From positions 1,579,182-1,611,181 of the forward strand of contig NZ_AP023086.1 in the NCBI RefSeq assembly GCF_021655555.1: a stretch of 32,000 nt of DNA. The letters are read 5' to 3'. The position numbers and the translations under genes were made by a program. This document shows, piece by piece, positions 6,571-32,000 of the stretch. Under the pieces are notes generated by a model. It ran no database searches, had not been told where the DNA came from, and worked only from the letters and a program-made list of their open reading frames with translations. The stretch's first letter is position 1; each line of letters starts with the position of its first letter. Source of the stretch: Marinagarivorans cellulosilyticus (lineage in GTDB: Bacteria; Pseudomonadota; Gammaproteobacteria; Pseudomonadales; Cellvibrionaceae).

Positions 6571-6587
6571 TGTTTGGCGATAAATTA

Positions 6588-9606: not shown

Positions 9607-9634
9607 TTGACACCTTTCGGTGCTCCTCTAAAAT
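9607..9634 (+). promoter_or_regulatory. Near-consensus sigma70 promoter facing the megasynthase gene
   Basis: TTGACA (9607-9612), a 16-nt spacer, then TAAAAT (9629-9634). It would give a leader of about 325 nt before ATG 9969. Confidence 0.4.
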
Positions 9635-15900: not shown

Positions 15901-18900
15901 ACGGCGAAAAACCAAGTGGCCTAGTGGTAACAATTGATATTAATGATATTAGAAAACGCTGCAATCTGAAGCTGGAAAGAAAAGCGGTTTATGATCTTTT
16001 CTCGCAATTAAAGTTTGAGTACAAAACCGGCTATATGCCCCTTGAAGAGGTGTACTTGAATGACAAGGAAGCGCTATCTCGAATAACCCTTCCCGAGAAG
16101 TTCGAAAATAAAGAGTCAATAGTATTACACCCCTCTCTGCTGGAAGGAGGAATTCAAACAGTGATTGGGATTCTTTCTCATCCCAGCCACGACTCGAGTA
16201 GTGCGTACTTACCGTTTTCGATGAGCTCGATAACCATTAATGAGAAATTGTCGTCAGAGTGTTATATCCATGCCAAGCTGGTGAGTGATGAACTTAGCGA
16301 GCGAAGAGGGGTAAGGACATTTGATATAGATATTTATGATATCAGTGGAACACTACTCGTAAAAATTGAAGGGTACTCACTAAAAACGCTAAACGCACTA
16401 GCGGACAACGGTAATCAAACATCTCCGAGTGCATCAAATGTATTCCACTGTTTTAAGAAAACGTGGGCGCAAGAGCCGCTATCACCAATCGAGGGGTTCC
16501 ACTTTGAAACAATTTTGCTGTTTAGCAATGAGCAAGAGAGCGTCGATTTAATTCAGGCCCACATTGGGACTGATATTCGAGTGATCCAAGTTATGGAAGG
16601 CGATCGCTTTACAGAGTTGTCACCGAGCAAGTTTGTATCTAAAGGAGACAAGGAGAGCTTGTCAATATTGCTGGAACAAATTGGCGAGCCTTTAGATGCG
16701 ATAATATATGGGTGGGGCCACGAACGCGGAGCGACAGACGAAAGCAACGTAAACGAGCATATTGAACAAACAATTATTCCGCTCTTTAATTTATGCTCTA
16801 TTCTTTCAAACCCGATCTATAAAGGTATTAATCTTCGGTTGTTATGTTTGGCACATATTGACCACGGTGAAATTAACCCCGTACAAATGGGAATGGGAGG
16901 GCTTTTAAGATCGCTCTACCAAGAAACACGAGCATTGAAAGGCTCCTTGGTTTGTTTGGAAGCTTTGTCTGAGAATAATGTTAAGCCGCTGATAGCTGAA
17001 ATCGCTGCAGATCAATGTTATTCGGAGATCAAAATACAAGATGGTTCTAGGCAGGTTTTAAACTACAAAGCCAAATCAGTTCCAGTATTCATTGAAGAGA
17101 ATAAATTTCCCGTCAAACCACATGCAATATATTTGGTAACTGGTGGTACGGGTGCAATTGGTAGAAAAATTATCGAGCATCTGCATTCAATTGCAGGAGC
17201 TAAATTCATCGTTATCGGTCGTCGCCCTCTATCATCTGACGTTAAACTGGCGTGGAATAATAAGGGTGTTAATTATCAGTATCACAGTGCTGATTTAAAC
17301 CGCTTTGATCAGATTCAATCGATAATTCAGGGGTTGGGTGTTGATGCAAGTAAAATTAAAGGAGTAATTCATTGCGCGGGTAGCATTGATGATGGGCTAC
17401 TTTCCAAAAAATCGAGTGACCAAATTTATTCAGTCATCCAAGCTAAAGCTGTCGGGTTGTATACCCTCGATATACTAACCAAAAATATCCAGCTGGATTT
17501 TTTCTGCTGCTTCTCATCGATATCTTCGGTGATGGGGAATATGGGGCAGACGGATTATGGCTATGCCAATGCAGTAATCGATCAATTTGTAGAAAACAGA
17601 TCCCAGCAGTTTGAAAAAGGTGAGCGCAGTGGAGTTTCACTGAGTATTAACTGGCCTCTCTGGCTCGACGGTGGTATGCAAGCTGATGAGGTCGCGACAA
17701 ACTACTTCAAAAAGTCTACCGGAATACACCCAATAACCACGGAGACAGGCATGTCTATGCTAGCTTACGCGGTAAATAAAGAGAGCGGCCAAGTTATTTT
17801 AAGTGCAGGGGACGATAAGAAAATACTCGGTGCGATGAGTTTACGTTCAAGCATTCAAAATAAAAGCAAGCACAAGCCAAAATCAGAAGTTTTACTTAAA
17901 TCTGTAAAGGCGCCACTTTCTTGCGCAAGCGCCATGGACCAATCGAAAGCTAACTTATCTCAAACGGTTGTTGAAGAACTGATTACTATTTCTGAAGGTA
18001 TTCTAAAAGTTGATTCTGGGTCCATAACTCAAGATACACGTTTAGCTGATGCGGGCTTTGATTCGATAAGTAATACGGAATTAACCACTGCAATCAATGA
18101 TTTATACTCGGTTGATGTCACACCCATCATATTCTTTGAGTACGAAACCTTGGGCGAGGTCACAGAGTTTTTATTAAAGGAATATAGGGATAGCATCGTC
18201 GAACATTGTGGCGAACAGCCCAGCGCGGTCGATAATATTATTCTAGAAGCAACCGATAGTGAGCAGATAGGGGCTTCGGCTCATTCTTTAAGAGAGAATG
18301 GCGAAGCCCTCAAAGATCTTGTTATTGATGAGTTAAAAAGTTTATCCGCTGCGATTTTAAAAATTGGTAAAGAGCAAATATCGGCAGATGAAAAAATGGC
18401 AGACTTGGGCTTTGATTCCATATCCAATACGGAATTGAGCACTGCAATTAACGATGTCTTCGATGTGGATATGACCCCAGTCGTGTTTTTTGAGTGCGAT
18501 ACTCTCGCTGAGGTGAGTGAGCACTTGATTGATGAGTACAGCGAGAGTTTAGAGCGTTATGCGGATGAAAAAGGCCTTAGTCAGCAGGTAGAGCATAGCG
18601 AAAAGGTAAGTACACCCATTATAGCAAGTGAGAAAGAAAGCCTAAGTTCTAGTGAAGCGCCAAGCCCAGAGGCCAGCCGCCAAGATGGAAATGTTGCTTC
18701 AAAAAATATTACAACGAGTGATATTGCCATCGTTGGAATGCAAGCGGCACTGCCGGGCTCCAATGGGCTAGATGATTTTTGGGAAAAATTGTTGAGCGGA
18801 ACAGATTTTGTGGGCGAGATCCCTGAAAATCGCTGGTCCTGGCAAGAGGTGTATGGAGAAGCTGGGCCGGAAGGTAAAACTCGATCCAAATGGGGGGCCT

Positions 18901-21359
18901 TCCTAAATCACATTGATCAATTTGACGCAGATTTTTTTGGAATATCCGAGAGCGATGCGCAATTGATGGACCCACAGCAAAGAATGTTTTTGCAGCTTGT
19001 TTGGCACACGATTGAAGACGCGGGCTACAGTGTCGAGTCCTTCGCTGGCAGTAAAACAGGGTTATATGCCGGCCTTTCTAACCGAGATTATTCAGAATAT
19101 CTTGCCAAGCAAGGTGTTGGGCTGAGTCCACAAATGAGCTTTGGAAACAATAATGCTTTCCTGGTGAATCGAATTTCCTATTTACTGGATTTTAATGGCC
19201 CCAGTGAAGCAGTTGATACACTTTGTTCAAGTTCACTGGTGGCTCTACAAAGAGCAGTTCTGGATATTCAAAACGGAATTTGTGATCAGGCCGTTGTTGG
19301 CGGAATTAGCTTGTTAGTGAGCCCAAGATTAAGCTCCGTATTTGAGCAAGCGAGTATGCTAAGTGAGGATGGGCGCTGTAAACCTTTTGATGAGCATGCC
19401 AATGGCTTTGTCAGGGGTGAAGGAGGCGGTGCCATATTTGTTAAGCCCTTGGATAAGGCGGTTAGCGATGGCGACAATATACTCGCCGTTATCAAGGGTA
19501 GCTTTGTGAATCATGGCGGTAGAGCAAACTCGTTGACGGCACCTAATCTAAAAATTCAAAAACAGCTTTTCCAAGATGCCTATAAACGCGCGAAAATTAA
19601 TCCAGCAACTGTATCCTTAATTGAAACGCATGGAACAGGAACAAAATTAGGTGACCCCATTGAAATAAAAGCAATGAAAAAAGCTTTTGAGGAGTGGGGC
19701 GTTACTGAAGGCGGCACAGAAAAGGCTTGTGCTCTCGGCGCACTTAAATCGAATATAGGCCATCTAGAGTCGGCATCGGGTATAGCAAGCTTGATCAAAG
19801 TTTTACTGTGTATGCGCCACAAAACACTACCAAAACAGATTCACCTTCAAAAAGAAAACCCCTACTTGGAATTGAGTAAAACGCCTTTTTACCTAGTGAC
19901 GGAGAATCAGCCTTGGGTAGCCAAAACAGGTGGAGATGGAACCGTACAGCCGAGGAGAGCAGGCGTTACATCTTTTGGTGCAGGTGGGGTTAATGCTCAT
20001 ATCATCCTCGAAGAATATCTGGAGGAGTATATAGCCCCTCAACATGTTGATAACAATCCCATAAATTTGACAGAAGACACGATTGTTCTGCTTACCTTAA
20101 GCGCAAAGACTGACAAAAGCTTACGTCATTATGCGGCGGATCTATTAGCTTACATAAACAATCATACGGTTGATTTGACTGAATTGGCGTACACCTTACA
20201 GCAAGGTAGGTCAAACCACGCAGTCAAACTATCCATTGAAGTTGCTAATATTATTGAGCTTAAAGCCGCCTTGGAACCCTTTATTTCAGGTGAGCACTCA
20301 AGTCGGATCAGTTATTCGAAAAATGGCGAAATCGTATATCTCGCTCAGTCGAGCAGTGACAAACTAACACTGATTAACAAAAAATGGCTGAGTGGTGAAG
20401 TTGTAGACTGGAGCACGCTATATATCGATCAGCGTGTCAAGCGCATTTCATTACCAGGTTATCCATTCTCGAATAAATCCTACTGGGTAGAAAAGAAATC
20501 GTTTAAGCCGACTGCCAATGTTAATTTTGATAAACAAAACTATACAGAAAATTTTATAAATAAAGACTTCAACCAAGGTGAGGCCTATTTGGCTGGGCAC
20601 AAAGTATTTGGCGACGAAGTGTTACTGGGCGTGACCTACCCGTCTATGGCTATTGAGTTTTCACGTAATAACTCCAACGGGGCCAATATTAACAGCGTAA
20701 AAAATGTCGTTTTTAACGAGCCTTTGGTACTCGAAAAAAATAACTCTGCTCGAGTTGTTGTGAGCTATACCGGTAAGGATAAAGGCATAGATTTTAAAAC
20801 CTACTTTCAGGTTAAGGGAAGCCACGAGACAAAATTATCATCGGTTGGGCGTTTAACAAGCGGGCAGCTAAGTAATGACGTGTTACCCATCAGTGCATTG
20901 ATGAACAAGATCGCCTCGGTACATCAGCAAAACGAAGTCTACAAACTCCTACGAGATCAGGGCGTTGACTATTCGGGTAGCTTGTTAACGCTTCATCGCG
21001 TACTGCTTGGCGAGAATGTCGCTATCGGGGAAATTGAGCTAAGGGATGATTTAATCAATAGCACCTCTGACTACCAATTACACCCAGTCTGGTTGGACAG
21101 TGCCATTGTGTGTGGCAAGTTTGCATTCCTAAAAGATCAGGATGCTTTATACATCCCATTTAGCATCGACCAAATAACCTTTAAAACTAAGCCGAGCAGA
21201 AAATCCTACTGCGTGGTTAAGAAGACTTTACTCAACGAGCAGATTTTGAAGTTCGATGTGTCCATTTGTGATCGTTGGGGAACGGTTTCGGTTGAAGCAA
21301 AAGGAATGTCCTGTAAGAGAGTTTTAAGCCAAGGCCAATGGAGTAAGAAAAACGCGTGA
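9969..21359 (+). CDS. Hybrid NRPS / trans-AT PKS megasynthase: F, C(C-terminal lobe only), A, PCP, KS, DH, KR, ACP, ACP, KS, DH-like
   Basis: The track ORF is 9957-21359 with a TTG start. The first ATG is 9969 and GTG 9963 is also possible. Domains were read from motifs; nt positions are approximate. F domain 9984-10800 (INYHDGPLPKYGG, VDEGRII). C-terminal half of a condensation domain 10930-11580, with no HHxxxDG. A domain 11648-13100 (YTSGSTGKPKG 12084-12116, NMYGPTETT, YRTGD, GRMDNQIKLNGYRIELGEIE, LNGKVDRK). PCP 13270-13500 (GFNSLG, Ser codon 13380-13382). KS1 13695-14990 (DTACSSS with Cys 14196-14198, EAHGSGT, SNVGH). Flank of about 180 aa without an AT. DH1 15540-16400. KR 16480-17830 (TGGTGAIG, IDD, YGYAN). 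ACP 17955-18185 (Ser 18063-18065). ACP 18310-18545 (Ser 18417-18419). KS2 18720-20020 (DTLCSSS with Cys 19224-19226, ETHGTGT, SNIGH). Flank. DH-like 20560-21330. Stop 21357-21359. Confidence 0.93.
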   Translation: MDHQKFSCLIIGGTSLLIECANKWIVNGHVIKLVVTDDNDVERWAKGHDIEVIRKGSSDYLDRVMGMNFDYLFSIVNLDILPKAIINAPAILAINYHDGPLPKYGGIHATSWAIANQEPSHGISWHEMLIGVDEGRIINQQVFDIEEGESAFTLNLKCFEYAIEGFDQLVSSIEAGSLELISQDLSERSYVGKYKRPKQLAVIDWNRPSKEIVSFVKALDFEHVENPLGIAKVHINNRFFQVKEAQSTGTRSSGRPGVVESIGPNYVEVSTTTESVKLRDFKTLCGQELDFNSITNELKEGADLNFYCFDNEQTIYEESAKREVFWVRKYQEAVKVTKKKSGLPKEPSYRASIPLTDYEMDALQNNSIAAVISLLGAFIAWSRRGQGFCVGLRCSESPVEGYFFDTHPLVMEDASGMSFEDIASKIELQLREITKNEHCPIDIFSRYSSLNSQSVKGNCYEYDFIVDVNESIDYDNDYVLDDQVRLNLSLENNEWNVIAGPKFDKDLLERFTKYYSLFSSSITTKPSAKREALSGLSLISGAQIAEIDGLNDTRVAMPNKSVCEIILDKASETPNAIAVISSSTEYSYQQLQDRVSEISGCLISLGIKSGDRIGILLNRSFDMVAAFIATMKVSAVYVPLDPIYPPDRLQHMIEDSGLKVLISVENILSKLENYNGSSLLLDKDMFGGTDDLAQFPGIEDSAYIIYTSGSTGKPKGVEINHKSLTNFILSMAEEPGLSKDDHLLSVTTVCFDIAALEIYLPLTQGATLELCTEMEAKDGFALLEKLEQGRITALQATPTTWEMLIAAGWEGKEKIKAMCGGEPLRRELALKLIPRCFELWNMYGPTETTIWSSIKLIKDADEITVGRPIANTTMYVLDESLKPVWPGEKGELFIGGAGVAVGYWNREELTKERFVSQSIFNRSPERLYRTGDAAKLSTHNEVVCLGRMDNQIKLNGYRIELGEIESTIESISGIEKCVVILFESMGESKLHAFLLMDDEGKQPKVSELSASIATKLPEYMVPSEYQFVSEFSLTLNGKVDRKELLKRLDDRPPKTTAKDNLDLPQSNSIAYKQLEQNLEDNKGSTGSEAELKQAACARSVTGALYDLLANDLENIVKELIHLDDIDRDLPFGQYGFNSLGFTRFSAEIRNRYNVRVSPATFYSHSNLNKLVDFLIDGKYSAEISEYYREVLVENYRDVEEPLYSGDQDSDAQKGSSQNSGVSAMPLEDTKDGKHINGSFNSREPIAVIGMSVKMPQADNLDEYWENLISRKDCVTHIPESRWDWKNTDFEQRSENPYKWGGFIPHAASFDASFFKISPREAELMDPQQRLFLQASYHAIEDAGYCPDELNGSDTGVYVGVVTSDYWDLIQREDISPDGYTISGNINCVIANRISYHFNFTGPSSVIDTACSSSLVALHRAVQAMRSGECSQAVVGGVNIIASPYIHHSFSKNGMLSKDGRCMSFDHRANGYVRSEGIAAVILKPLSAAERDGDKIYGTILGTAENHGGKANSLSAPSGEAQSQLIQKAIKNANVDPNTISYIEAHGSGTPLGDPIEIAGIQNAYESLGVDSDHQDEICGIGSVKSNVGHLEAVAGLAGLVKVLLSLKNEVIPGMPNYEAKNPHIDLNENLFQFVSRPREWKRKSGVGNGAGRRAGVSSFGFGGVNAHVIVEEYQARDESQSGNRANALLISAPNKDKLERLVQQYLVHTLSDGGNTWEEICYTSQVGRQHFDERLIVCAASKQQAKNALEKHVDRWGSANEVLSGNVREQKEILDKLFSNIGNTSIVKTLIEQKQFNSIAQFWLAGSEVNWRALYEAAKIKRASLPLHPFAQTTFWLPNKSTHLFEAELQNAIRENSHLDHPFYDSLAASCGNLIFSLDPKDPIVGDHIVDSKVIFPAVGYLEFARLAGDQFNRENLNLPVVKLKNNVWFHALDVGFHESNKKLSIRLENRKSKVVYTIESMSELSSGQVHARGEIEYGEKPSGLVVTIDINDIRKRCNLKLERKAVYDLFSQLKFEYKTGYMPLEEVYLNDKEALSRITLPEKFENKESIVLHPSLLEGGIQTVIGILSHPSHDSSSAYLPFSMSSITINEKLSSECYIHAKLVSDELSERRGVRTFDIDIYDISGTLLVKIEGYSLKTLNALADNGNQTSPSASNVFHCFKKTWAQEPLSPIEGFHFETILLFSNEQESVDLIQAHIGTDIRVIQVMEGDRFTELSPSKFVSKGDKESLSILLEQIGEPLDAIIYGWGHERGATDESNVNEHIEQTIIPLFNLCSILSNPIYKGINLRLLCLAHIDHGEINPVQMGMGGLLRSLYQETRALKGSLVCLEALSENNVKPLIAEIAADQCYSEIKIQDGSRQVLNYKAKSVPVFIEENKFPVKPHAIYLVTGGTGAIGRKIIEHLHSIAGAKFIVIGRRPLSSDVKLAWNNKGVNYQYHSADLNRFDQIQSIIQGLGVDASKIKGVIHCAGSIDDGLLSKKSSDQIYSVIQAKAVGLYTLDILTKNIQLDFFCCFSSISSVMGNMGQTDYGYANAVIDQFVENRSQQFEKGERSGVSLSINWPLWLDGGMQADEVATNYFKKSTGIHPITTETGMSMLAYAVNKESGQVILSAGDDKKILGAMSLRSSIQNKSKHKPKSEVLLKSVKAPLSCASAMDQSKANLSQTVVEELITISEGILKVDSGSITQDTRLADAGFDSISNTELTTAINDLYSVDVTPIIFFEYETLGEVTEFLLKEYRDSIVEHCGEQPSAVDNIILEATDSEQIGASAHSLRENGEALKDLVIDELKSLSAAILKIGKEQISADEKMADLGFDSISNTELSTAINDVFDVDMTPVVFFECDTLAEVSEHLIDEYSESLERYADEKGLSQQVEHSEKVSTPIIASEKESLSSSEAPSPEASRQDGNVASKNITTSDIAIVGMQAALPGSNGLDDFWEKLLSGTDFVGEIPENRWSWQEVYGEAGPEGKTRSKWGAFLNHIDQFDADFFGISESDAQLMDPQQRMFLQLVWHTIEDAGYSVESFAGSKTGLYAGLSNRDYSEYLAKQGVGLSPQMSFGNNNAFLVNRISYLLDFNGPSEAVDTLCSSSLVALQRAVLDIQNGICDQAVVGGISLLVSPRLSSVFEQASMLSEDGRCKPFDEHANGFVRGEGGGAIFVKPLDKAVSDGDNILAVIKGSFVNHGGRANSLTAPNLKIQKQLFQDAYKRAKINPATVSLIETHGTGTKLGDPIEIKAMKKAFEEWGVTEGGTEKACALGALKSNIGHLESASGIASLIKVLLCMRHKTLPKQIHLQKENPYLELSKTPFYLVTENQPWVAKTGGDGTVQPRRAGVTSFGAGGVNAHIILEEYLEEYIAPQHVDNNPINLTEDTIVLLTLSAKTDKSLRHYAADLLAYINNHTVDLTELAYTLQQGRSNHAVKLSIEVANIIELKAALEPFISGEHSSRISYSKNGEIVYLAQSSSDKLTLINKKWLSGEVVDWSTLYIDQRVKRISLPGYPFSNKSYWVEKKSFKPTANVNFDKQNYTENFINKDFNQGEAYLAGHKVFGDEVLLGVTYPSMAIEFSRNNSNGANINSVKNVVFNEPLVLEKNNSARVVVSYTGKDKGIDFKTYFQVKGSHETKLSSVGRLTSGQLSNDVLPISALMNKIASVHQQNEVYKLLRDQGVDYSGSLLTLHRVLLGENVAIGEIELRDDLINSTSDYQLHPVWLDSAIVCGKFAFLKDQDALYIPFSIDQITFKTKPSRKSYCVVKKTLLNEQILKFDVSICDRWGTVSVEAKGMSCKRVLSQGQWSKKNA

Positions 21360-21360
21360 T

Positions 21361-21563
21361 TACCTTAGGGGCATCTCTAAAAATGCACTTTTTCCGCGAT
21401 AGCGGCTTACAGTTTTTTGCTCCTGCAAAACCTGTATTCAGTCCATCCATGGACATTAGCTCCGTCCTCGAGTCCTCATTTACACCACGTAAACTGCGGC
21501 TCTCCGGGCGGTGCTTCCTTGCTCTCACAAAAAAATTACTATTTTTAGAGGTGCCCTTAGGTA
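21361..21563. mobile_element. MITE-like non-autonomous element (about 203 bp, imperfect terminal inverted repeats)
   Basis: The left end is taccttaggggcatctctaaaaat (21361-21384). The right end atttttagaggtgcccttaggta (21541-21563) has reverse complement tacctaagggcacctctaaaaat, which matches the left end at about 20 of 24 positions with one indel. No credible coding capacity. It is bounded by TA on both sides. Its right end recurs at 8994-9043. Confidence 0.65.
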
Positions 21564-21601
21564 TGACCAAATCAATAGCCAGAAATCAGGGGGATTAATA
21601 G

Positions 21602-24600
21602 GTGTCAAAGTACTTTAAAGCAATAGACCGGTATGCCGTAGGGCATGCCAACATGATGATTAAATACCGATTTATAGTGGTAGCAATTTGTATTGCTGTG
21701 GCAATGGGAATTGCCTATGGCGGTAAGTTTTTGAATTTCTCCTCCGATTACCGAGTGTTCTTCTCGGGAAGCAATCCGGAGCTTAATACTTTCGAAAGCT
21801 TCCAAAAAACCTACACAAAGAACGATAACTTTTTCTTTGTCCTAGAGCCAAAAGACGGAAACGTATTTACCAATCAAACCCTGCGTGCAGTCGAAAAACT
21901 AACAGAACAATCTTGGCACATTCCGTTTGTTAATCGTGTTGATTCGCTTAGTAATTTCCAAAATTCTTACAACGTCGGTGACGATCTTGTTGTAGAAGAT
22001 TTGATATATCAAGCGGAGGGCCTTTCCGGGAGCGCGATTAGAAAAATTCGTGAAACAGCACTCAACGAACCGTTACTGGCAGATTTGCTAATCACTAAAA
22101 GTGGTGATGCAACGGGCATCAATGTTGTCTTGCAGTATCCAGGGAACAGCCTGTACGAGGTACCTACAGCGGCAGCAAAGGCACGAGAGCTTAAGGCTGC
22201 CATAGAAACAGAATTCCCAGATATTGATGTGTCACTAACTGGGTTTTCAATGTTGAATAATGCGTTTGCTGAAGCGGGCTACTTGGATTCTATTAAGCTA
22301 GTACCGGTGATGTATGCGGTACTTACATTTATTACTTTGGTTGCACTTAGGTCATTTTTAGCGACTTTTGTCGTGGTGGGCATTGTGTATTTATCCATGG
22401 GCGTTGGAATGGGAGCGGGTGGCTTTGGTGGAGTACTCCTTACGCCAATTTCTAACTCTGCACCAATCGTAATTTTAACGCTGGCTATCGCAGATTGCGT
22501 CCATATATTTATGACAATCAATATGGCAATGAAGAGAGGGCTATCAAGAAACGAAGCAATTGTAGAGTCAATTAGATCAAACCTAATGCCTGTTACTATT
22601 ACTTCGCTAACAACCATTGTTGGTTTTATGGCGTTAAACTTTTCAGATGCACCACCTTATTGGCATTTGGGCAATATGGCCTCTGCCGGTATAGCCGCTG
22701 CATGGATACTGTCGTTGACTTTATTGCCTGCGGCTATCTCCATATTACCTTATCGTGTGAAGAAAAAATCTAAGGCAGCGTTATCTGAGGTATATATTAC
22801 AAAATTCTCGAAATTTGTATCGTCTAACCCTAAGACCCTTGTATCAACTTGCGTGTTAGCTTGTTTAGCGTCATTGGCATTTGTTCCATCCATTGACCTA
22901 GATGACCAATGGTCCGACTATTTTTCGAAGGAAATTGAGTTTAGAAATGATACCGATCAAGCAACGACCAAATTTGGCTTATACCCCATCGAATACTCAG
23001 TACCTGCTAGCGGGCCTGGTGGTATTAGTAATCGAGAGTATTTAACGAAGCTAGAAGAGTTCACCTCGTATTTGCGTGGCCTCGATAATGTGGCTCACGT
23101 CTACTCTGTCACCGATATCATTAAGCGTCTCAATAAAAACATTAATAATGATAAGGACGAGTTTTACAAAATTCCCCAGGTCGATAATGAAGCCGCTCAA
23201 TACCTTCTTCTTTATGAGCTATCTCTTCCGTACGGCTTAGATTTAAATGATCGTATAAATATTGATAAATCCGCGACTCGCGTGACGGTAACTTTAGGTA
23301 AAACATCAACCTCTGAGACAAAGGTCTTCCTGAATACGGCGGACGAATGGATTGCTAAAAATTTCCCTGCATATATGAAAGAAACAAGGCCGACGAGTGC
23401 TCAGGTTATGTTTACTTACATTGCTGACCGAAATGTCCAGAGCATGATAGCGGGAACAATCATTGCCATCGTACTAATCTCGATTATTCTTATTTTTGCT
23501 TTAAGAAGTGTGCGCTTGGGTTTACTCAGTCTCGTACCCAATGCATTACCTATTATCACTGCCTTTGGGGTATGGGGCGTTCTTGTTGGTACGGTGGGCT
23601 TTTCAGTAGCCGCTGTGGCAGCAATTTCATTAGGTATTGTGGTGGATGATACTGTTCACTTCCTAACGAAATACGAAACCGCGCGAAGAGAAAAGGGATT
23701 ATCACCGGCAGAGTCCGTCGAATATTCATTTCAAAATGTAGGTTTGGCCATAGTTATCAATACTTTCATATTAGTTATTGGGTTCTTGGTAATGGCCAGC
23801 TCCTCCTTCAAGATCAATTCCGATCTAGGATATTTGACAGTAATTACTATCGTCGCGGCTCTAATTCTTGATTTTCTATTATTACCCTCACTTTTATTAT
23901 TGCTCGATAAAAAGAAGGAGCCAGCAATGGACGAAAAGACTGTTTCAGGTACCGTTTCTCCGGGAATTTCTATTTCTACTACTGTCGGCGCCACGTTGCT
24001 CTTTATTGCCGTCATAGGCGCCTCGGTAAGTGTGCCCGTAATCGCGCAAGCGAATGAAGACAAGGGCTATCGAATTTCTGCTATGTCGGATCGAAGTGAT
24101 AGGGGTTTTATTAGTAGCGATGTCTCTTTGCAGATGGTTCTTCACAATAGTACTGGCAACAAGGCAACGAGAGACCTACAAATAAAAACTTTGGAAGTAA
24201 TAGACGAAAACCTAGGTGATAAAAGTATCGTTATCTTTAGCGAGCCAAATGATATTGCCGGCACCGCTTTGTTATCTCACGCGAAAATACTCGATGCGGA
24301 CGATCAGTGGTTATACCTGCCGACCCTTAAGCGTGTTAAGAGAATTTCGTCAAAGAACAAATCTGGGCCTTTTGTGGGTTCAGAGTTTGCCTTTGAGGAT
24401 TTCACAGCGTTAGAACTCAATAAATATTCTCACGAATGGGTGGAGGAGCAAGCCTGCGCAGAGCTCAAGTGTGATGTCATCAAGCGCATTCCTCAATATG
24501 AATTTTCCGGCTACAAGCATCTTCTTGTGTGGATTGATCAGAATGATCATCAGGTGAGAAAAGTTGAGTTTTACGACCGAAAAGGAGACTTGCTTAAGAC

Positions 24601-24772
24601 TCTAAATCTAGAAGACTACCGCAAGTACGGGAGTTACTGGCGGGCACATGCGCTTCATATGATAAATCATCAAACGAATAAGAAAACCGATCTCATTTAT
24701 GGTGACTATGCATTTAGCACAGATTTGAGTGCTCGAGATTTCGAGAAGGGTAGGTTGAAGCAGATCCGGTAG
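21602..24772 (+). CDS. RND-superfamily (MMPL / COG1033-type) exporter permease fused in frame to a LolA-like outer-membrane lipoprotein-sorting domain
   Basis: GTG start 21602 with AGGGGGA 7 nt upstream. The N-terminus IDRYAVGHANMMIKYRFIVVAICIAVAMG and the following DYRVFFSGSNPEL are typical of this exporter family. There are two pseudo-repeated TM bundles (...PIVILTLAIADCVHIF... and ...ISLGIVVDDTVHFL...), each following a large periplasmic loop. From about aa 776: MDEKTVSGTVSPGISISTTVGATLLFIAVIGASVSVPVIAQA, then a soluble domain of about 240 aa (DDQWLYLPTLKRVKRISSKNKSGPFVGSEFAFEDF...) matching the LolA-like sorting-protein family as I recall it. Confidence 0.85.
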   Translation: MSKYFKAIDRYAVGHANMMIKYRFIVVAICIAVAMGIAYGGKFLNFSSDYRVFFSGSNPELNTFESFQKTYTKNDNFFFVLEPKDGNVFTNQTLRAVEKLTEQSWHIPFVNRVDSLSNFQNSYNVGDDLVVEDLIYQAEGLSGSAIRKIRETALNEPLLADLLITKSGDATGINVVLQYPGNSLYEVPTAAAKARELKAAIETEFPDIDVSLTGFSMLNNAFAEAGYLDSIKLVPVMYAVLTFITLVALRSFLATFVVVGIVYLSMGVGMGAGGFGGVLLTPISNSAPIVILTLAIADCVHIFMTINMAMKRGLSRNEAIVESIRSNLMPVTITSLTTIVGFMALNFSDAPPYWHLGNMASAGIAAAWILSLTLLPAAISILPYRVKKKSKAALSEVYITKFSKFVSSNPKTLVSTCVLACLASLAFVPSIDLDDQWSDYFSKEIEFRNDTDQATTKFGLYPIEYSVPASGPGGISNREYLTKLEEFTSYLRGLDNVAHVYSVTDIIKRLNKNINNDKDEFYKIPQVDNEAAQYLLLYELSLPYGLDLNDRINIDKSATRVTVTLGKTSTSETKVFLNTADEWIAKNFPAYMKETRPTSAQVMFTYIADRNVQSMIAGTIIAIVLISIILIFALRSVRLGLLSLVPNALPIITAFGVWGVLVGTVGFSVAAVAAISLGIVVDDTVHFLTKYETARREKGLSPAESVEYSFQNVGLAIVINTFILVIGFLVMASSSFKINSDLGYLTVITIVAALILDFLLLPSLLLLLDKKKEPAMDEKTVSGTVSPGISISTTVGATLLFIAVIGASVSVPVIAQANEDKGYRISAMSDRSDRGFISSDVSLQMVLHNSTGNKATRDLQIKTLEVIDENLGDKSIVIFSEPNDIAGTALLSHAKILDADDQWLYLPTLKRVKRISSKNKSGPFVGSEFAFEDFTALELNKYSHEWVEEQACAELKCDVIKRIPQYEFSGYKHLLVWIDQNDHQVRKVEFYDRKGDLLKTLNLEDYRKYGSYWRAHALHMINHQTNKKTDLIYGDYAFSTDLSARDFEKGRLKQIR

Positions 24773-24777
24773 TTTTA

Positions 24778-25962
24778 ATGCAAATGTATCAGAGAAATTT
24801 GGCGAGATTAACACTGTGCGTAGCTTCTCTTTTTACTGTTGAGGTTTACGCTGATGATCTAAGTCTCGGTGGAAGTGTGGGGTTCGAGCATCGACACTTT
24901 TTCGAATCTCCACAATACGAGGAGCAATCTAAAAGTGTAAGTACTGAGGTTGTATTTGAACCGGAACTGGCTTTTAGCTTAGGCAGGAACAACCAGTTTT
25001 CTTTCAAAGGGTTTGTTCGCGAAAACAGTGAGGACGAACAAAGAAATCACAGTGATATTCGTGAGCTTTATTGGAATTATCAGGGTGATTTATTCGATCT
25101 GACTGTTGGGGTGAACAAGATCCATTGGGGTGTTGTTGAGTCGCTAAATGTTGTGAATATTATTAATCAGATTGACTATGTGGAAGACATCTCCTTGGAT
25201 GAAAGGTTGGGCCAGCCAATGCTTGGAATAAGCGCCACAAATGACTGGGGCACTATCTCGGCATATTGGTTAACTCACTTTAGGGAGAGAACATTTCCTG
25301 GCGAGAAAGGGCATTTCAGACTTTCTCTACCAGTAGATGTGAATAATGCAGAATATTCTGGCGTTGAAAAGAATGACCATAAAGACCATGCGCTTCGGTA
25401 TTCTCATTATTTTGGAGATCTTGATGTGGGACTCCACTGGTTTAATGGAATCGACAGAAGCCCAGAATTCCGGGTAGATGCGGATCGATTAATTCCTGTC
25501 TACAGTCATTTAGAGCAGTTTGGTTATGATTTTCAATACACCTTTGATGCTTGGTTACTAAAAGCTGAGGGCGTTTATAAGACAAAGAGTCAAGAGAGTT
25601 CCTATTCGTTAGTGACTGGCCTGGAATATACCATTTTTCAGTTTTTTGGGGGCACGGGTGATCTCGGTTTTTTATTTGAGTACCTCTACGACAGCCGAGA
25701 AGCCGTTGATCCTCTTTTCGAGAACGATGCGTTTATCGGCCTTCGATACGTTATGAATAATGTTCAGGATACAACCTATTTAATTGGTGCGATAAGGGAC
25801 TCCAAAACCAGTGAAACTGTCGTTAACCTAGAATTCACCACAAGAGTTGGCTCCCAATTTTTACTGGAAGTTAATGGTATTTATTTTGATAACGCGGAAT
25901 ATTCGTTTCAAAGTTTTGCGAAAGATAGCAGTGTGTCTTTAAACCTAAGTTGGCACTTTTGA
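24778..25962 (+). CDS. Outer-membrane beta-barrel (porin-like) protein
   Basis: The signal peptide is MQMYQRNLARLTLCVASLFTVEVYA|DD. Amphipathic strands alternate, aromatic residues are abundant, and the C-terminus is ...SLNLSWHF, ending in Phe. The start is 6 nt after the stop of the exporter gene. The family is not assigned. Confidence 0.7.
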   Translation: MQMYQRNLARLTLCVASLFTVEVYADDLSLGGSVGFEHRHFFESPQYEEQSKSVSTEVVFEPELAFSLGRNNQFSFKGFVRENSEDEQRNHSDIRELYWNYQGDLFDLTVGVNKIHWGVVESLNVVNIINQIDYVEDISLDERLGQPMLGISATNDWGTISAYWLTHFRERTFPGEKGHFRLSLPVDVNNAEYSGVEKNDHKDHALRYSHYFGDLDVGLHWFNGIDRSPEFRVDADRLIPVYSHLEQFGYDFQYTFDAWLLKAEGVYKTKSQESSYSLVTGLEYTIFQFFGGTGDLGFLFEYLYDSREAVDPLFENDAFIGLRYVMNNVQDTTYLIGAIRDSKTSETVVNLEFTTRVGSQFLLEVNGIYFDNAEYSFQSFAKDSSVSLNLSWHF

Positions 25963-26039
25963 ATGATCATCTTTGATTAAGCAGGGTACAACCTAGTAAT
26001 AGCAATTAATTTAGTCTTTAACTAATGCAGGATTATGTT

Positions 26040-29000
26040 ATGGAGAGGATGATAGAGTCTAGAAAAATGGCTGGTAAAAATACGAGCCAATCAATGGTTG
26101 ATTATCTGATTAGGCGGATTGAAGTGATTACGAAATCGTCTATCACTAAATCTGATTTAAAAAAGAACATAATGGATTTAGGTGTTGACTCTATTGGCCT
26201 AGTGAATATTGTGGATGATATTAAAAAGGAATTCGATATTGACCTGCAACCCACAATATTCTTCGAGTATCAGAGTATTTCTGAATTATCAACATACTTG
26301 ATAGACGAAGTTGGAAGTGCTGATGCACCGGCAGCCGCTGCCAACGTTAAAGAGACATATTCGTATATCGAACAACCCGATAAAAAATTTGAATCTCAAG
26401 AATTGCAGAGTAGGAGAGGTCACGCTGCGTCGTTTGTTCGGGATGCCAGCGAAGGTGATTTGGAGGATCTGTTCAATGCTTTTCAGGGTGCTGAGGGCGG
26501 TTCTAATTACCAGGATGCGAGCAAAAGCTACGCAAAACCTAAAGTAAAAGCCGAATTGGAAGATATCGCGGTTATCGGAATGGCTGGTAAGTTTTCCGGC
26601 TCAGATAATGTGAATGAGTTCTGGGAAAATATATCTAGCCAGAAAGACTTATTTAGTAAGGTTCCTAGCGACAGATTTGATTACGCGCAGTGGGCATCAG
26701 AGAATTATGATCTGGCAGATAAAATATACTGCGATCGCGGGAGCTTCATTTCTGATGTAGATAAGTTTGACGCTTCTTTTTTTAATATTCCCCCAAAAGA
26801 AGCCGCGATCTTAGATCCTCAGCTCAGACTATTACTGCAAGTTATTTATGAATCGATAGAAGATGCTGGCTATGCAAATAAGATAAGGGGAACAAACACC
26901 GGTATGTATGTTGGTGCTTGTTTTCACGATTACGAACTAGAACTGGTAAGGAACATGGGCGAGATGAGCCCCTATTTTGGGACTGGTAATGCCCTCACAA
27001 TGTTGGCGAATCGACCATCCTTTTATTTGGATTTAAAAGGGCCGAGTTTACCTTTGGACACTGCTTGCTCAGCCTCGTTAGTTGCCGTTAACGCAGCGCT
27101 GCAAGCTTTAAGAAATGACGAATGTGAAATGGCTTTTGTTGCCGGTACTAATTTACTTCTGAGTCCGCTTCATTATCGATACTTTTGTGCCATTGGCGCA
27201 CTATCTAAATCTGGAAATAGCTTCCCTTTTGACTCTCGAGCCGACGGTTATTTGCCTGGGGAGGCCGTGGGGGCTGTTTTACTCAAGCCACTTGAAAAGG
27301 CAAAGCGTGATGGGGATGAGATCCACGCAGTCATTAAGAGCGCCGCTGTAAATCACGGTGGTTATAGTGCTTCGTTCACTGCGCCCAATGTTTCGCAAGA
27401 AGCCGCAGTGATTAAAAAAGCGCTGTACGCTGGTGGTATCCCCGCAGAAAGTATTTCCTATATTGAAGCGCATGGAACGGGCACCTCGCTCGGCGATCCA
27501 ATAGAAGTTCAGGGTTTAAAGCAAGCTTTTAAAGGCGTAAATACTGATATTGCGCAATGTGCCCTCGGGACCACCAAGGCTCATATTGGGCACGCTGAAG
27601 GTGCTGCAGGTATAGCTGGGCTAATTAAAGTGATATTAGCCATGAAAAATAAAACAATCCCTGCAATGCCTCACCTCGAAGAGATTAACCCCTATATCAA
27701 TATGGAAGGGTCCCCTCTGTACATCAATAGACAAAATAAAAAATGGGAAGCCAATAGCGGATTTCCTAGAAGAGCAGGAATTAGCTCCTTCGGTATCGGT
27801 GGTGCCTATGCGCATATTGTTGTAGAAGAGTACGAGCAAGAGGAAATTGCAAACACTGCGCCTGACGAAAAGGATTCGGTGTTTGTGCTTTCAGCACGAA
27901 GTGAAGAGGTTTTACGCTCCTATTCAAATAATATTGCTGACTATGTTGAGGAGCAGTATTTAGGGGGGGGCATTAGTGGCTTGTACTCACCGAGTAAACT
28001 TTCCGAGTTTATTTTATCTGAAACTGGCAAAGATATCCCGGAAACCAGCTACGACGAGCACCTATTGGATCTGGGCTTTGATATATATGATTATGTAAAA
28101 ATCGCCGATCGCCTTTCTCGTGAGATGAACTCCAATGTGAGCGCTCGAATTATTTCACTACACCCAACGCTCTTCAAATTGGCTAACTTTCTTTCTGGTT
28201 CAGAAAATGTTGAAACGCCAAGGGTACGAGTGAGTGATCTTGCTTACACCATGCAGGTGGGCAGAGAGGCTATGCCATATCGTTTGGCTATTGTTACACG
28301 CGACCACGAAACACTCATCGAAGAATTAAGAAGTTTCTCCAAAAATACTCAAAGTGGACAAGCCTGTTTTTATAATTTGGGCCAGAAATCCGATCAATGG
28401 AGTGAGCTACTAGAGACCCAAGAGGGTGAAGGGTTTCTAAAAACGCTACTGGAATCTGGTAATCAAACGCATCTAGCAAAGCTTTGGGTTAATGGCGTTG
28501 ACGTACCCTGGGGAAGCACCACTGCTGAAAAAAGACGACTGGTAAAGCTACCCTCTTACCCTTTCCAAAAAGTTCGCTTTTGGTATTCCGAAGAAGTAGC
28601 GGTACAGCCCAAAAATAAAGAAAAAATCATAAATATTGTTGATCAGGTACGCAAGAAAGAAACGACAGCGGATATCCTTAAAGATATATGGATGACGTAC
28701 TTGTCTGTGGAATCGATTAATGAGAATGATAATTTCATGGCGTTGGGTGGGACTTCAATTAATTCGACCCAAGTTGTGGTAGAAATCAACAGACGCTTCG
28801 ATACAAATATCACTGTCGGTGAATTTGGCCAATGCAAGGATTTGGGCGAGTTATCATCCATTGTTGAATCGCGCAAAAAGCCTGAGCGTGCTGATAGCTC
28901 TAGCGTCAGTACCCTAGTTCGGAGTATTACTTCCTCTAATAAAAAGCAAGGTAAGCTGAGTTCCGATCAGATGAGGCTTTGGGTTTTGTCCCAAATGTAT

Positions 29001-32000
29001 CCAAATAACCACCGTCATAATATTTCATCGGCGTATGAAATAACCGCCGCACTCAATCCGTCAATTCTTCAAGAATCAATGGATATTGTAGTAGCTACCC
29101 ACGGTTCAATAAGAACTCGTTTTGGCACCAAAGACGGTGTTCCTTATCAGGATATCGTCGATACATCCAAAATCAAAATTACATTCCACGACAATGTCCA
29201 GTCGAGAGCACAAGCCTTAGACATCATCAACGAAGCAGCAAAAAGACCTTTTGAACTCGACAAGGCAGAACTTGTTCGTGTGACGGTAATTAATGAAGGT
29301 GGCGTAGTAATTCTTTCAATCATTGCTCATCACATTATTGCAGATATTACGTCTGTCGATGTTATTGCGAAAGATCTAATTACTACCTACAGCGCGTTAA
29401 CAAACGGTAGCAAAGGTGAAAGTATTGACTTAGGCCGTGCACAATTTCTAGACTATATTTCCTTGTCTGCGGATTCCAAAATAAAGACGAAGTCTCAGGA
29501 CATTAGTTTTTGGAGGGAGTATCTAAAAGATGCACCTAACGAGATTACCTTGCCTTTCGACAGCCCGCGCGGTGAAAGTCACTCTCATAATTCCAAGCAG
29601 CTTCACTTTGAACTGGGTAAGGAGCACGTTAACTTGGTGCGCAATACCGCCAAGTCACTATCAATTACTCCTTTTATATTAACCTATTCGGTTTTTAACG
29701 TCGTATTTTCGGAATTGTGCCAACAGCACGACTTCCTTATCGGGGTGCCAAACGCGAATAGGCATTTACCCGATAGCCAAGATATGGTTGGTTTTTTGGC
29801 GAATACTTTGGTCTTAAGGTCTAAGGTTACTCAAGAACAAGACTTCGAGTCTTATACCAAGGATGTTAAAAATGATCTTTATAATGTCTTTGACCATCAA
29901 AATATGGGGTTTGGTGATATTGCCGCGGAACTGAAAGTCCCATCACCTAAAAACCATAATCCAATGTTTCAAATACTCTTCAATATGATTAATCGCGATG
30001 AGTATTTACTGCAAGAAAATGGAATTAGCCTAAAAACCCTCCCGATTCCATTGGTCACCCTAGATTTTGATATTCTATTTTCGGTGGATATCATGGGGGA
30101 GCGTTTGCGTGTCTCCATGGATTTCGATTCGGATCTATTTGAGACAAAAACTGTAGAATCGATTTTAAACGCTTTTGAGCTTGCGCTTGGATACACCCTT
30201 GATATCTTAAGCCGAGGCGAAAGCCTGGTTTGTTCTTCGATTGGCGCACTGTGCAAACTGTGTGACACGAAGGAAAATGAGCGAAATGAGGAAGGAAAAT
30301 TACTCATTTCATCTACCTTTACGGCTGAGCCGCTGTCCGAAACGCTTAATTTTTGGCTGGATAAAGTCGGCTTAAACCTAGGCCTCGACTATGCGCCTTA
30401 CAACCAGGTGTTTCAGCAACTACTTGATCCTTCGCAAGGCTTATACAGTAACCCGAAGGGCGTGAATACTGTTCTGGTCCGTTTAGATGATTGGCTGCGC
30501 TTCAATCGACAGAATAGTTCCGTCGGCTCCGTTGATGAAGAGTTAAATCGAATTCTTGATGATTTCGAAAAAGCGCTGATTCAATATGGAAGTTCAGTTT
30601 CCACTGCGCTCGTGGTAGTGCTGCTGCCCACGAATCAGGAAAATTCTAAAGAGCATTTGCTTCGTGAAAGGGTGGAAAAAGTCGCCAGCGGTTTTAGCAA
30701 TATCAATGTCCTAGGGAGCGACGAGATAGACGCCTATTACTCTGTCGACGAAAAGTTTGACTCAGTTGCAGACAGCGTTGGTCACGTGCCCTTTACATCT
30801 AGCTATTTTTCGGCGATTGGTACCGCACTTGTACGCAGCGTTAGGTCGCACTTTCTCAGTCCGTATAAAGTGATTGTAGTCGATTGTGATAACACGCTAT
30901 GGAAGGGGGTCGTTGGTGAACTCGGCTGTGAGGGAATCCAAATTGACCCCGCACGCCAAAAATTACAAGAGTTTCTAGTCGAGCAGAAAAATGCGGGTGT
31001 TTTATTGTGTGTTGCCAGTAAAAATGTCGAGGAGGATGTTGCTTCCGTATTTGGTCAGCGAACAGATATGCCACTTAAGTCAGACGACGTTGTTCTTTGG
31101 AAGGTTAATTGGGACGCGAAATCAAAGAATATCATTGAGATGTCTAACGAGCTTAATTTGGGTTTGGATAGCTTCGTCTTTATTGATGACAACCCAATTG
31201 AGTGTGCGGAAGTATCTGCCGCTTTACCCCAAGTATTAACCATTCAATTCCCTCAAGAATCGAAAGAGATTGAGTCCATGTTGAATTCGCTTTGGGACCT
31301 AGACCGTAAAGGGGTCTCAGGGGAAGACTCGAAGCGTACTGACCTTTATCAGCAGAATATTAAACGCGATAAAGCCTTAAAGAATTCTAGCTCTTTTCAG
31401 GATTTCATCGATAGCTTGGAGCTTCAAATTGATTTTCAGCCGGTCGATGACAGCACTATAGGGCGCGTAAGCCAGCTGTTTTTGCGTACCAACCAATTTA
31501 ATGCGACAACCCGGCGGCACAGTCAATCGCAGTTGGAACAGATGATTCGAGATCGCGGTTACGAATGCACGACGGTCTCGGTAAAGGATCGGTTTGGAGA
31601 ATACGGTTTAGTTGGCGTTTTGCTGTATAGCTTTAATAAAGATTGTGTTGTTCTCGATAGTTTTTTGCTGAGCTGTCGTGTGCTAGGTAAGGGCGTTGAG
31701 CACCGAATGATCAATGAGGTGGCAAAGAAGGCATCTCAAAGAAGCGTGGCAAGTGTGCAACTGGACTTTGTTGAAACCGAAAAAAATATTCCAATTAAGA
31801 AGTTTTACGATTCAATAAAGCCTTCTAGCTGGGATCCCCAGGAGCACAAGTACCTCATTAAGGTTGAAGATGCGTTGCGCTTTAAGTTTAATCCAGAGTT
31901 TAAATCGCAGGATGTTAACGAACAACCTAAGGTAATTGAAACTTTCAATAATAAATCACCCGTCGAAATGGCTGAGGTGGCCTTAAATCTCAATTCTATC
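26040..32000 (+). CDS. Hybrid trans-AT PKS / NRPS megasynthase, 5' part (open at the right edge): ACP, KS, flank with Ser-less carrier-like insert, T, C, FkbH-like
   Basis: Not in the ORF track because it has no stop in the window. My codon-by-codon translation from ATG 26040 (AGGA 7 nt upstream; ATG 26049 and 26067 are alternatives) is open for 1987 codons to nt 32000. ACP about 26090-26310 (MDLGVDSIG, Ser 26190-26192). KS3 26559-27835 (DTACSAS with Cys 27066-27068, EAHGTGT, KAHIGH). Flank 27840-28590 (LAYTMQVGREAMPYR...LPSYPFQKVRFW). T 28650-28870 (FMALGGTSI, Ser 28755-28757). C 28955-30250 (AHHIIAD 29328-29345). FkbH-like 30290 to beyond 32000 (VVDCDNTLWKG with Asp 30882-30884; FIDDNP; LLSCRVLGKG with Cys 31674-31676). 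Confidence 0.9.
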   Translation, partial: MERMIESRKMAGKNTSQSMVDYLIRRIEVITKSSITKSDLKKNIMDLGVDSIGLVNIVDDIKKEFDIDLQPTIFFEYQSISELSTYLIDEVGSADAPAAAANVKETYSYIEQPDKKFESQELQSRRGHAASFVRDASEGDLEDLFNAFQGAEGGSNYQDASKSYAKPKVKAELEDIAVIGMAGKFSGSDNVNEFWENISSQKDLFSKVPSDRFDYAQWASENYDLADKIYCDRGSFISDVDKFDASFFNIPPKEAAILDPQLRLLLQVIYESIEDAGYANKIRGTNTGMYVGACFHDYELELVRNMGEMSPYFGTGNALTMLANRPSFYLDLKGPSLPLDTACSASLVAVNAALQALRNDECEMAFVAGTNLLLSPLHYRYFCAIGALSKSGNSFPFDSRADGYLPGEAVGAVLLKPLEKAKRDGDEIHAVIKSAAVNHGGYSASFTAPNVSQEAAVIKKALYAGGIPAESISYIEAHGTGTSLGDPIEVQGLKQAFKGVNTDIAQCALGTTKAHIGHAEGAAGIAGLIKVILAMKNKTIPAMPHLEEINPYINMEGSPLYINRQNKKWEANSGFPRRAGISSFGIGGAYAHIVVEEYEQEEIANTAPDEKDSVFVLSARSEEVLRSYSNNIADYVEEQYLGGGISGLYSPSKLSEFILSETGKDIPETSYDEHLLDLGFDIYDYVKIADRLSREMNSNVSARIISLHPTLFKLANFLSGSENVETPRVRVSDLAYTMQVGREAMPYRLAIVTRDHETLIEELRSFSKNTQSGQACFYNLGQKSDQWSELLETQEGEGFLKTLLESGNQTHLAKLWVNGVDVPWGSTTAEKRRLVKLPSYPFQKVRFWYSEEVAVQPKNKEKIINIVDQVRKKETTADILKDIWMTYLSVESINENDNFMALGGTSINSTQVVVEINRRFDTNITVGEFGQCKDLGELSSIVESRKKPERADSSSVSTLVRSITSSNKKQGKLSSDQMRLWVLSQMYPNNHRHNISSAYEITAALNPSILQESMDIVVATHGSIRTRFGTKDGVPYQDIVDTSKIKITFHDNVQSRAQALDIINEAAKRPFELDKAELVRVTVINEGGVVILSIIAHHIIADITSVDVIAKDLITTYSALTNGSKGESIDLGRAQFLDYISLSADSKIKTKSQDISFWREYLKDAPNEITLPFDSPRGESHSHNSKQLHFELGKEHVNLVRNTAKSLSITPFILTYSVFNVVFSELCQQHDFLIGVPNANRHLPDSQDMVGFLANTLVLRSKVTQEQDFESYTKDVKNDLYNVFDHQNMGFGDIAAELKVPSPKNHNPMFQILFNMINRDEYLLQENGISLKTLPIPLVTLDFDILFSVDIMGERLRVSMDFDSDLFETKTVESILNAFELALGYTLDILSRGESLVCSSIGALCKLCDTKENERNEEGKLLISSTFTAEPLSETLNFWLDKVGLNLGLDYAPYNQVFQQLLDPSQGLYSNPKGVNTVLVRLDDWLRFNRQNSSVGSVDEELNRILDDFEKALIQYGSSVSTALVVVLLPTNQENSKEHLLRERVEKVASGFSNINVLGSDEIDAYYSVDEKFDSVADSVGHVPFTSSYFSAIGTALVRSVRSHFLSPYKVIVVDCDNTLWKGVVGELGCEGIQIDPARQKLQEFLVEQKNAGVLLCVASKNVEEDVASVFGQRTDMPLKSDDVVLWKVNWDAKSKNIIEMSNELNLGLDSFVFIDDNPIECAEVSAALPQVLTIQFPQESKEIESMLNSLWDLDRKGVSGEDSKRTDLYQQNIKRDKALKNSSSFQDFIDSLELQIDFQPVDDSTIGRVSQLFLRTNQFNATTRRHSQSQLEQMIRDRGYECTTVSVKDRFGEYGLVGVLLYSFNKDCVVLDSFLLSCRVLGKGVEHRMINEVAKKASQRSVASVQLDFVETEKNIPIKKFYDSIKPSSWDPQEHKYLIKVEDALRFKFNPEFKSQDVNEQPKVIETFNNKSPVEMAEVALNLNSI
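27963..27970. repeat. G8 homopolymer inside the megasynthase coding sequence
   Basis: Direct count: tta ggg ggg ggc, encoding L-G-G-G. Confidence 0.95.

Follow-up and report, generated by a model that had tools for sequence, protein, structure and literature searches.

In a 32-kb stretch of DNA from Marinagarivorans cellulosilyticus (32,000 nucleotides, positions 1,579,182 to 1,611,181 of contig NZ_AP023086.1; hereafter the window) we find two polyketide synthase (PKS) genes that are separated by the genes of a putative envelope exporter. The 4680 bp between the first PKS gene (gene 1) and the second (gene 3) hold a small insertion that resembles a miniature inverted-repeat transposable element (MITE), a gene coding for a transporter of the resistance-nodulation-division (RND) type fused to a LolA-like domain, and a gene for a predicted outer-membrane barrel protein. 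The reading we favor, and which we consider probable, is that these last two genes are an export cassette that was captured a single time, long ago, into a PKS operon, and has since been kept there, is co-transcribed with the synthase and exports its product.

Position and history of the exporter cassette

Gene 1 (9957-21359, + strand) was identified by Pfam scan and motif inspection as a hybrid nonribosomal peptide synthetase/AT-less PKS of 3800 aa that ends in a ketosynthase (KS) and a dehydratase (DH) domain, and gene 3 (26040-32000, + strand), which extends past the window end, opens with an acyl carrier protein (ACP) domain followed by a KS. Between them lie the RND-LolA gene (21602-24772, + strand) and the barrel gene (24778-25962, + strand), and all genes from 9957 to 32000 share the + strand, separated by 242, 5 and 77 bp. 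The same order, i.e. a PKS gene ending in KS-DH, the RND-LolA gene, the barrel gene and a PKS gene starting with ACP-KS, is found in the window and in the loci L001 (an ENA metagenome contig), L002 (Cellvibrio sp. ARAG 10.3), L008 (a contig related to L002, with an RND protein 89% identical, that ends past the barrel gene start) and L009 (a third metagenome lineage, whose contig is cut before the RND gene). The gaps in the syntenic loci measure 42-50 bp, 5-14 bp and 64-103 bp. The exporter pair is found at exactly this place in at least three diverged lineages, namely that of the window, whose barrel protein is 100% identical to one assigned to Marinagarivorans cellulosilyticus, that of Cellvibrio together with L008, and that of L009. 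The divergence is evident from the identities of L002, L008 and L009 to the window: 31-79% overall for the PKS parts (KS domains 64-78%; the C-terminal dehydratase-fold domain of gene 1, DH2, 44%; linkers 31-36%), 66-78% for the RND-LolA protein (membrane part ~67%; LolA-like part 76-78%) and 44-45% for the barrel. As to whether the two PKS genes adjoin each other elsewhere, a question raised with the original prediction for this stretch, no related cluster that lacks the exporter was recovered by the scans described below.

Several searches were made for related clusters. A scan of the GTDB species genomes with a DH2 alignment (the genome of the window itself not being included) recovered Cellvibrio sp. 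ARAG 10.3 only, a word-indexed protein search with DH2 recovered one fragment (P0121), and a metagenome scan with the DH2 alignment recovered no match. A metagenome scan with an alignment of the gene 3 ACP returned five unrelated PKS loci, with 28-34% identity and without RND or OMP (outer-membrane protein) genes.

The RND-LolA family itself is large, with more than 3500 homologues of the same architecture, which are gammaproteobacterial (e.g. Cellvibrio, Marinicella, Woeseia and Thiodiazotropha). In a distance-based neighbour-joining tree built from 61 members of the family, the copies that are embedded in PKS clusters (the window and P0001-P0004) group as a single clade. Elsewhere in the family the RND and OMP pair occurs in ordinary chromosomal contexts behind a TetR gene (L004, L005 and L006). 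We also observed that the RND-LolA/barrel pair of the sister clade is the 3'-terminal part of a conserved operon (L003:1243-14350, L015:2203-17329 and L016:354-11451) that codes for IDO, a flavin monooxygenase, a cupin, an FAD monooxygenase, GST and anthranilate synthase I and II, and it looks like a second, independent recruitment of the cassette to a small-molecule pathway. The simplest history is that a widespread cassette entered the PKS operon once, ahead of the separation of the three lineages.

The composition of the cassette is indistinguishable from that of the PKS genes: the GC content at third codon positions is 0.417 and 0.391 for the cassette genes and 0.415 and 0.421 for the PKS genes, and the GC content and codon usage of 21602-25962 likewise match. 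The correlation of relative synonymous codon usage between the RND gene and gene 3 is 0.77, and that for 3-kb pieces of gene 1 is 0.78-0.79. This agrees with an old event and gives no sign of recent acquisition.

The gap of 242 bp between gene 1 and the RND gene holds the MITE-like element (21363-21561, no strand assigned), which has no open reading frame (ORF) of its own and is bounded by the direct repeat CCTTAGG at 21363-21369 and 21555-21561. Its inverted arms of 19 nt (21366-21384 and 21541-21559) are 89% complementary, where no chance matches are expected. L001 and the window align in two gap-free blocks (97.9% and 98.6% identical, 20.4 kb), and the sole indel between them is a stretch of 192 bp that is present in the window and absent from L001. 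The empty site in the latter reads ...GATTACCTTAGGTATGACC..., with CCTTAGG occurring once there and twice in the window. The true length of the target duplication is ambiguous (2-7 bp), and the element measures ~185-192 bp. The insertion lies 3-10 bp past the stop codon of gene 1, its exact point being ambiguous inside the 7-bp repeat; the RND gene starts ~42 bp further on, and its AGGGGG ribosome-binding site is left intact. The only ORF across the element is a spurious one on the minus strand that overlaps gene 1, and no transposase is encoded. With terminal inverted repeats, small size, lack of a transposase and a target duplication matched by an empty site, the insert is built like a MITE; it is intact-looking rather than degraded, and the term 'transposon remnant' applied to it earlier does not fit. 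Folded as RNA, the element would give a long and very stable hairpin (-82.7 kcal/mol, z = -5.4) that lacks a U-tract, and Rfam has no match in it or elsewhere in the window. Its terminal repeat occurs in none of the 16 fetched loci, and no further copies were found in the window, these loci, viral contigs or plasmids (the host genome not being among them).

The location of this element bears on a different history, in which the exporter block came recently to a pre-existing gene junction with the MITE as scar or vehicle. That the element lies exactly at the gene 1/RND junction with its terminal repeats intact would be expected under such a history, and the original prediction had taken it for a possible footprint of the exporter insertion. 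However, L001 has the exporter genes without the 192-bp element, at a clean empty site with one CCTTAGG, Cellvibrio and two other lineages keep the exporter in place without such an element, and the composition of the cassette matches that of the PKS genes. As the exporter is present without the element in L001, Cellvibrio and the other loci, the MITE is not a footprint of its arrival. A recent arrival is hence hardly credible: the comparison refutes it unless L001 lost the MITE by precise excision, and even then there would be no link to the cassette in the other loci. The old capture into the PKS operon remains the preferred history, and the MITE-like insertion itself is younger than the ~2% divergence of the window and L001, i.e. 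a strain-level event unrelated to the exporter. The two sequences form a natural 'before and after' pair for testing the effect of a mid-operon hairpin on downstream expression.

The divided module and its probable carrier

The domains of gene 1 are, in order, formyltransferase, A, PCP, KS1, DH1, KR, ACP, ACP, KS2 and DH2. Pfam detects three PP-binding stretches in the protein, none of them downstream of KS2, which bears out the earlier claim that gene 1 stops after KS2 and a DH-like domain with no carrier. Its final domain is recognized as PKS_DH_N/PS-DH, and the stop codon falls ~10 residues beyond the DH fold. KS2 (aa 2915-3350; 18699-20006, + strand), which is 64% identical to its Cellvibrio orthologue, retains the cysteine (DTLCSS) and the two histidines (HGTGT and SNIGH) of the active site, and from this complete Cys/His/His set it is predicted to have elongating activity. 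The alternative assignment of KS2 as a non-elongating KS0 was ruled out by the same intact residues. DH2 (20499-21356, + strand) has His3548 (20598-20600, in HKVFGDEVLLG) and Asp3714 (21096-21098, in HPVWLDSAIV), both of which are invariant in 5/5 orthologues; this rules out an assignment to the Asp-lacking pyran synthase or enoyl-isomerase type.

Gene 3 codes in turn for ACP, KS3, linker, ACP, C, FkbH and PCP domains. As the original prediction had it, the gene that begins at 26040 is headed by the next carrier domain: PP-binding is matched at residues 38-87, with the motif LGVDSI and Ser51 at 26190-26192. This N-terminal ACP leads the gene 3 orthologue in L001, L002 and L009 too, directly ahead of KS3. 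Beta-branching ACPs are marked by a tryptophan after the serine; we ruled out this class for the gene 3 ACP, whose serine has no following Trp. Neither gene 1 nor gene 3 has an Acyl_transf match that would indicate a cis-AT, and each KS in both PKS genes is trailed by a RhiE-like/CurL-like linker with no integrated AT. Because neither PKS gene has an integrated AT domain, the system appears to be AT-less and consistent with the trans-AT type. No free-standing AT gene is present in the 32-kb window or the fetched flanks, and the cluster continues beyond both.

When DH2 was run by HMMER against the full set of 1.84 billion representative proteins, five close relatives emerged (35-47% identity), in all five of which DH2 ends 8-17 residues ahead of the C-terminus; the next best matches are generic DH domains of ~24% identity. 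Since the domain is C-terminal in 5/5 relatives and fused to an ACP in none, the break between DH and ACP is ancestral to the family, with every known orthologue carrying it. The claim of a module split at this boundary is thus supported, with gene 1 ending in KS2-DH2 and gene 3 opening with an ACP, and the KS2-DH2 half would be partnered by the latter. As the two halves are separate proteins that meet after translation, the distance of 4.7 kb between their genes is irrelevant to catalysis.

The partnership can be questioned on the grounds that two ACPs stand directly ahead of KS2 in gene 1, that the role of a KS2-DH2 unit without a KR is unclear, that no docking domains are recognized and that the rest of the cluster is beyond the window. 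KS2-DH2 might then use the tandem ACPs of gene 1, or a free-standing ACP elsewhere, and no module would be split across the exporter. We give this only a small chance, because a KS that elongates and has kept its whole Cys/His/His triad requires a downstream carrier for its extender unit, and no orthologue has an ACP after DH2 in its DH2 protein. Moreover, the downstream gene, where visible (L001, L002 and L009), opens with a conserved ACP before KS3, and KS-DH|ACP-KS is the co-linear reading. On the reading that the module is completed by the gene 3 ACP, a PKS module can be completed by a carrier that lies several kilobases and two unrelated genes downstream, and annotation software that looks for the second half of a module in the neighboring gene alone would put this assembly line together wrongly.

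Two side observations concern the dehydratases and their surroundings. In L008 (8940-9110), a Cellvibrio-like metagenome contig of 4x coverage, there is an in-frame TAG exactly between the KS2 linker (LPGYPFSRTRDW) and DH2, and no canonical start codon ahead of the DH catalytic His; the TAG may stem from an error in sequencing, or else be a true nonsense mutation. In DH1, which belongs to the preceding module, the second motif reads HPSLLEGGIQ, in which a Glu replaces the usual Asp.

The exporter proteins and their probable role

As had been noted from the letters alone, an RND-LolA fusion gene and an OMP gene are co-oriented between the PKS halves, and Pfam, a PDB match and a barrel model bear this out. 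The first codes for an RND transporter (HAE3/MMPL-type) with two MMPL stretches and a C-terminal LolA_like domain (aa ~818-1056). The latter matches PF17131 (E 7e-56, profile positions 3-183 of 184) and PDB 3bk5 (1.6e-64), and there is also a weak match to DUF1329; the match of the protein to the HAE3 model TIGR00921 (9.9e-47) is below the family cut-off. Hydropathy analysis shows helix clusters at 19-431 and 616-768 and an extra helix at 797-815, in keeping with the RND pattern of two homologous halves, ~12 transmembrane helices and two periplasmic loops. The position of the extra helix after the twelfth transmembrane helix (TM12) would make the LolA-like domain periplasmic. This hydrophobic helix (23990-24046) ends in ...PVIA|QANE, like a signal-peptide cleavage site, which suggests that the fusion arose from an RND gene and a downstream gene for a secreted LolA-like protein.

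The barrel gene codes for a protein of 394 aa that has a signal peptide (MQMYQRNLARLTLCVASLFTVEVYA|DD), ends in ...SWHF with a terminal Phe, and has no Pfam or NCBIfam match. Its AlphaFold2 model (pLDDT 87, pTM 0.80) has ~20 strands, and Foldseek searches with it recover porins, channels of the OprD family and AlgE (probability 1.0, identity 9-13%). The product is accordingly modeled as a porin-like outer-membrane beta-barrel. A homologue lies directly 3' of the RND gene in 8/9 comparison loci, and ~3 kb downstream in L015; the barrel gene is a constant partner of the RND-LolA gene. An exact-sequence look-up of the RND and OMP proteins of the window and of P0122 found nothing on record.

The three gaps contain no terminator-like or promoter-like site (scan of 21000-26400). 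A strong candidate operon promoter, to which no site in the gaps is comparable in quality, lies ~320 bp 5' of gene 1 (9607-9634, + strand), TTGACA-16-TAAAAT, which matches the consensus at 11 of 12 positions and is a consensus match only. Both the RND gene and gene 3 have an SD-like (Shine-Dalgarno-like) sequence ahead of the start codon. With the recurrent gene order and the short gaps, these features fit the second option of the original prediction, that export is hard-wired into the assembly-line operon, and suggest that the genes probably form one long co-transcribed biosynthetic operon.

Based on these observations we propose that a two-gene cassette of RND-LolA pump and barrel was captured once, long ago, into a junction of PKS genes and then retained, where its mid-operon position would couple the expression of the exporter to that of the synthase. 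The pump, driven by the proton gradient, would collect the hydrophobic product in the periplasm or at the inner membrane, the fused LolA-like domain would shield it across the periplasm, and the barrel would pass it into or through the outer membrane. The product itself is predicted to have an N-formyl-aminoacyl start and an FkbH/glycerate unit inside. For the start, the loading module (gene 1 aa 1-1150; 9957-13400) consists of formyltransferase, A and PCP domains, the first with Asn/His/Asp-type motifs (AINYHDG and GVDEG), and this architecture suggests an N-formyl-aminoacyl starter unit. For the interior, a stretch of ~600 aa without Pfam match past the C domain of gene 3 (aa ~1400-1986; 30240-31998; L001:18639-20828) contains an FkbH domain (TIGR01686, E 2e-91 when the full-length orthologue is scanned) and, after it, a PCP, and C-FkbH-PCP suggests a glycerate-derived unit joined to the chain mid-line.

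Movement of a hydrophobic product across the envelope is proposed by analogy with two known systems. The AmeABCD system of Castellaniella defragrans comprises the HAE3 pump AmeD, the LolA-superfamily DUF1329 protein AmeB, the DUF1302 outer-membrane protein AmeA, and AmeC, and genetic evidence points to export of hydrophobic monoterpenes (PMC6394551). Like it, the pair in the window combines an HAE3-type RND protein, a LolA-superfamily part and an outer-membrane protein of its own, without a classical membrane-fusion protein or TolC. It differs in that the LolA-like part is fused to the pump via the extra helix, the barrel of ~390 aa has no DUF1302 match, there is no AmeC equivalent and the context is biosynthetic rather than catabolic. 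With two genes only, no DUF1302 match in the OMP and no AmeC-like gene, the pair is not a member of the AmeABCD group, though it may work in a similar way. Aryl-polyene clusters have an RND protein, ApeM, with the Lol-like proteins ApeL (LolA-like) and ApeN (LolB-like), for which localisation of the product to the outer membrane has been proposed (PMC8253772). They too place RND and Lol-like transport genes amid a polyketide-type cluster with a lipid-like product proposed to reach the outer membrane; however, the Ape genes are separate and not fused, a LolB-like membrane protein takes the place of the barrel, the synthase is type II fatty-acid-like and not a modular PKS, and the likeness is by gene description only. 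HpnN and BstA, the RND lipid transporters for hopanoids and sterols, also move hydrophobic lipids from the inner membrane toward the outer one, but both lack a LolA-like fusion as well as a barrel gene paired with the pump. The RND-LolA protein matches them weakly (TIGR03480, 1.7e-27; NF045600, 1.7e-6), and as these scores are far below the equivalog cut-offs it is not a member of either family.

The oocydin cluster, in which oocK is encoded between oocJ and oocL, has a comparable division of a module. There a split trans-AT module takes in all three proteins, OocJ, OocK and OocL (PMC6174933), and the premise of the original prediction that halves of split modules are normally encoded by adjacent genes is thus too strong. 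As in the window, two PKS proteins share one trans-AT PKS module, and the oocydin module includes the non-PKS protein OocK. In contrast, OocK is an oxygenase acting on a carrier-bound intermediate, whereas here 4.4 kb with two transport genes intervene, for which no catalytic role in the module is plausible. Transport genes are common in biosynthetic clusters, and the arrangement is a modest variant of known ones (OocJ/K/L, ApeLMN, AmeABCD) and not a new kind of system. What differs is that the intervening genes are transporters, in a fused two-gene HAE3/LolA/barrel form, from a family without a characterized member. Literature searches found nothing that joins trans-AT split modules with RND genes, or a LolA-like domain with an RND fusion, and none of the Marinagarivorans papers screened by title and abstract deals with this cluster.

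Should the proposal hold, a family of >3500 RND-LolA proteins and a partner barrel without a Pfam family would have their first clear link to biosynthetic operons, providing a testable case for export of self-made hydrophobic metabolites by them. A bolder extension would see the pair as a two-protein trans-envelope conduit that dispenses with a membrane-fusion protein or TolC and that metabolite operons have taken up on at least two occasions. Here its cargo would be a lipid-like product destined for the outer membrane, and the cluster would then produce an envelope lipid and not a secreted antibiotic. Owing to the fixed place of its genes amid the polycistronic message, co-translational insertion could moreover tether the mRNA to the membrane, such that the split halves of the module are made and assembled next to the exporter; this we advance only as an improbable speculation.

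The family context also allows for a cassette that is a mere passenger, i.e. a general hydrophobe or solvent tolerance pump that is kept by linkage and neither exports nor localises the polyketide. Most family members lie outside biosynthetic clusters, behind TetR genes like inducible efflux pumps, and AmeABCD, the only characterized analogue, is a tolerance system. Yet the position has been kept while the PKS parts diverged to 31-79% identity, there is no TetR gene, and the RND gene follows the PKS gene upstream of it after only 42-50 bp. Further, the embedded copies are monophyletic and the sister clade is likewise attached to a metabolite operon, and on balance we consider a passenger role unlikely.

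Against the export of the polyketide by an anciently captured, co-transcribed cassette several points have to be set. The occurrence of the family behind TetR in non-biosynthetic contexts makes a general hydrophobe-tolerance pump possible. No cassette-free orthologous cluster emerged from the GTDB, protein or metagenome scans, and the cassette may have entered an existing gene junction or may itself have made the break in the module. The RND-LolA tree was built simply from distances and carries no support values, and the scans for promoters and terminators that bear on co-transcription yield consensus matches only. The KS2-DH2|ACP module (18699-21356 and 26040-26310) lacks a KR despite the intact KS2 triad and the retained His and Asp of DH2, which leaves its chemistry, including the step that DH2 would carry out as a dehydratase or isomerase, unexplained. 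Finally, an inspection of the gene 1 C-terminus and gene 3 N-terminus for docking motifs shows short tails only, of ~10-15 basic residues beyond DH2 and 15-18 residues, lacking conservation, ahead of the ACP of gene 3, with no recognisable docking domains.

Upstream genes

The promoter-like site at 9607-9634, near-consensus and sigma-70-like, lies within an AT-rich stretch of 1.3 kb between a gene for a LysR-type regulator and gene 1. The region 5' of the PKS genes (4613-8590) codes for an FMN reductase, two tandem metallo-beta-lactamase-fold proteins and this divergently oriented LysR-type regulator, which may be the tailoring and regulatory genes of the cluster. Further upstream, the ORF at 3300-4544 matches a diheme c-type cytochrome domain of the SO2930 family (TIGR03806, 1.4e-38, below the cut-off) and probably lies outside the cluster.

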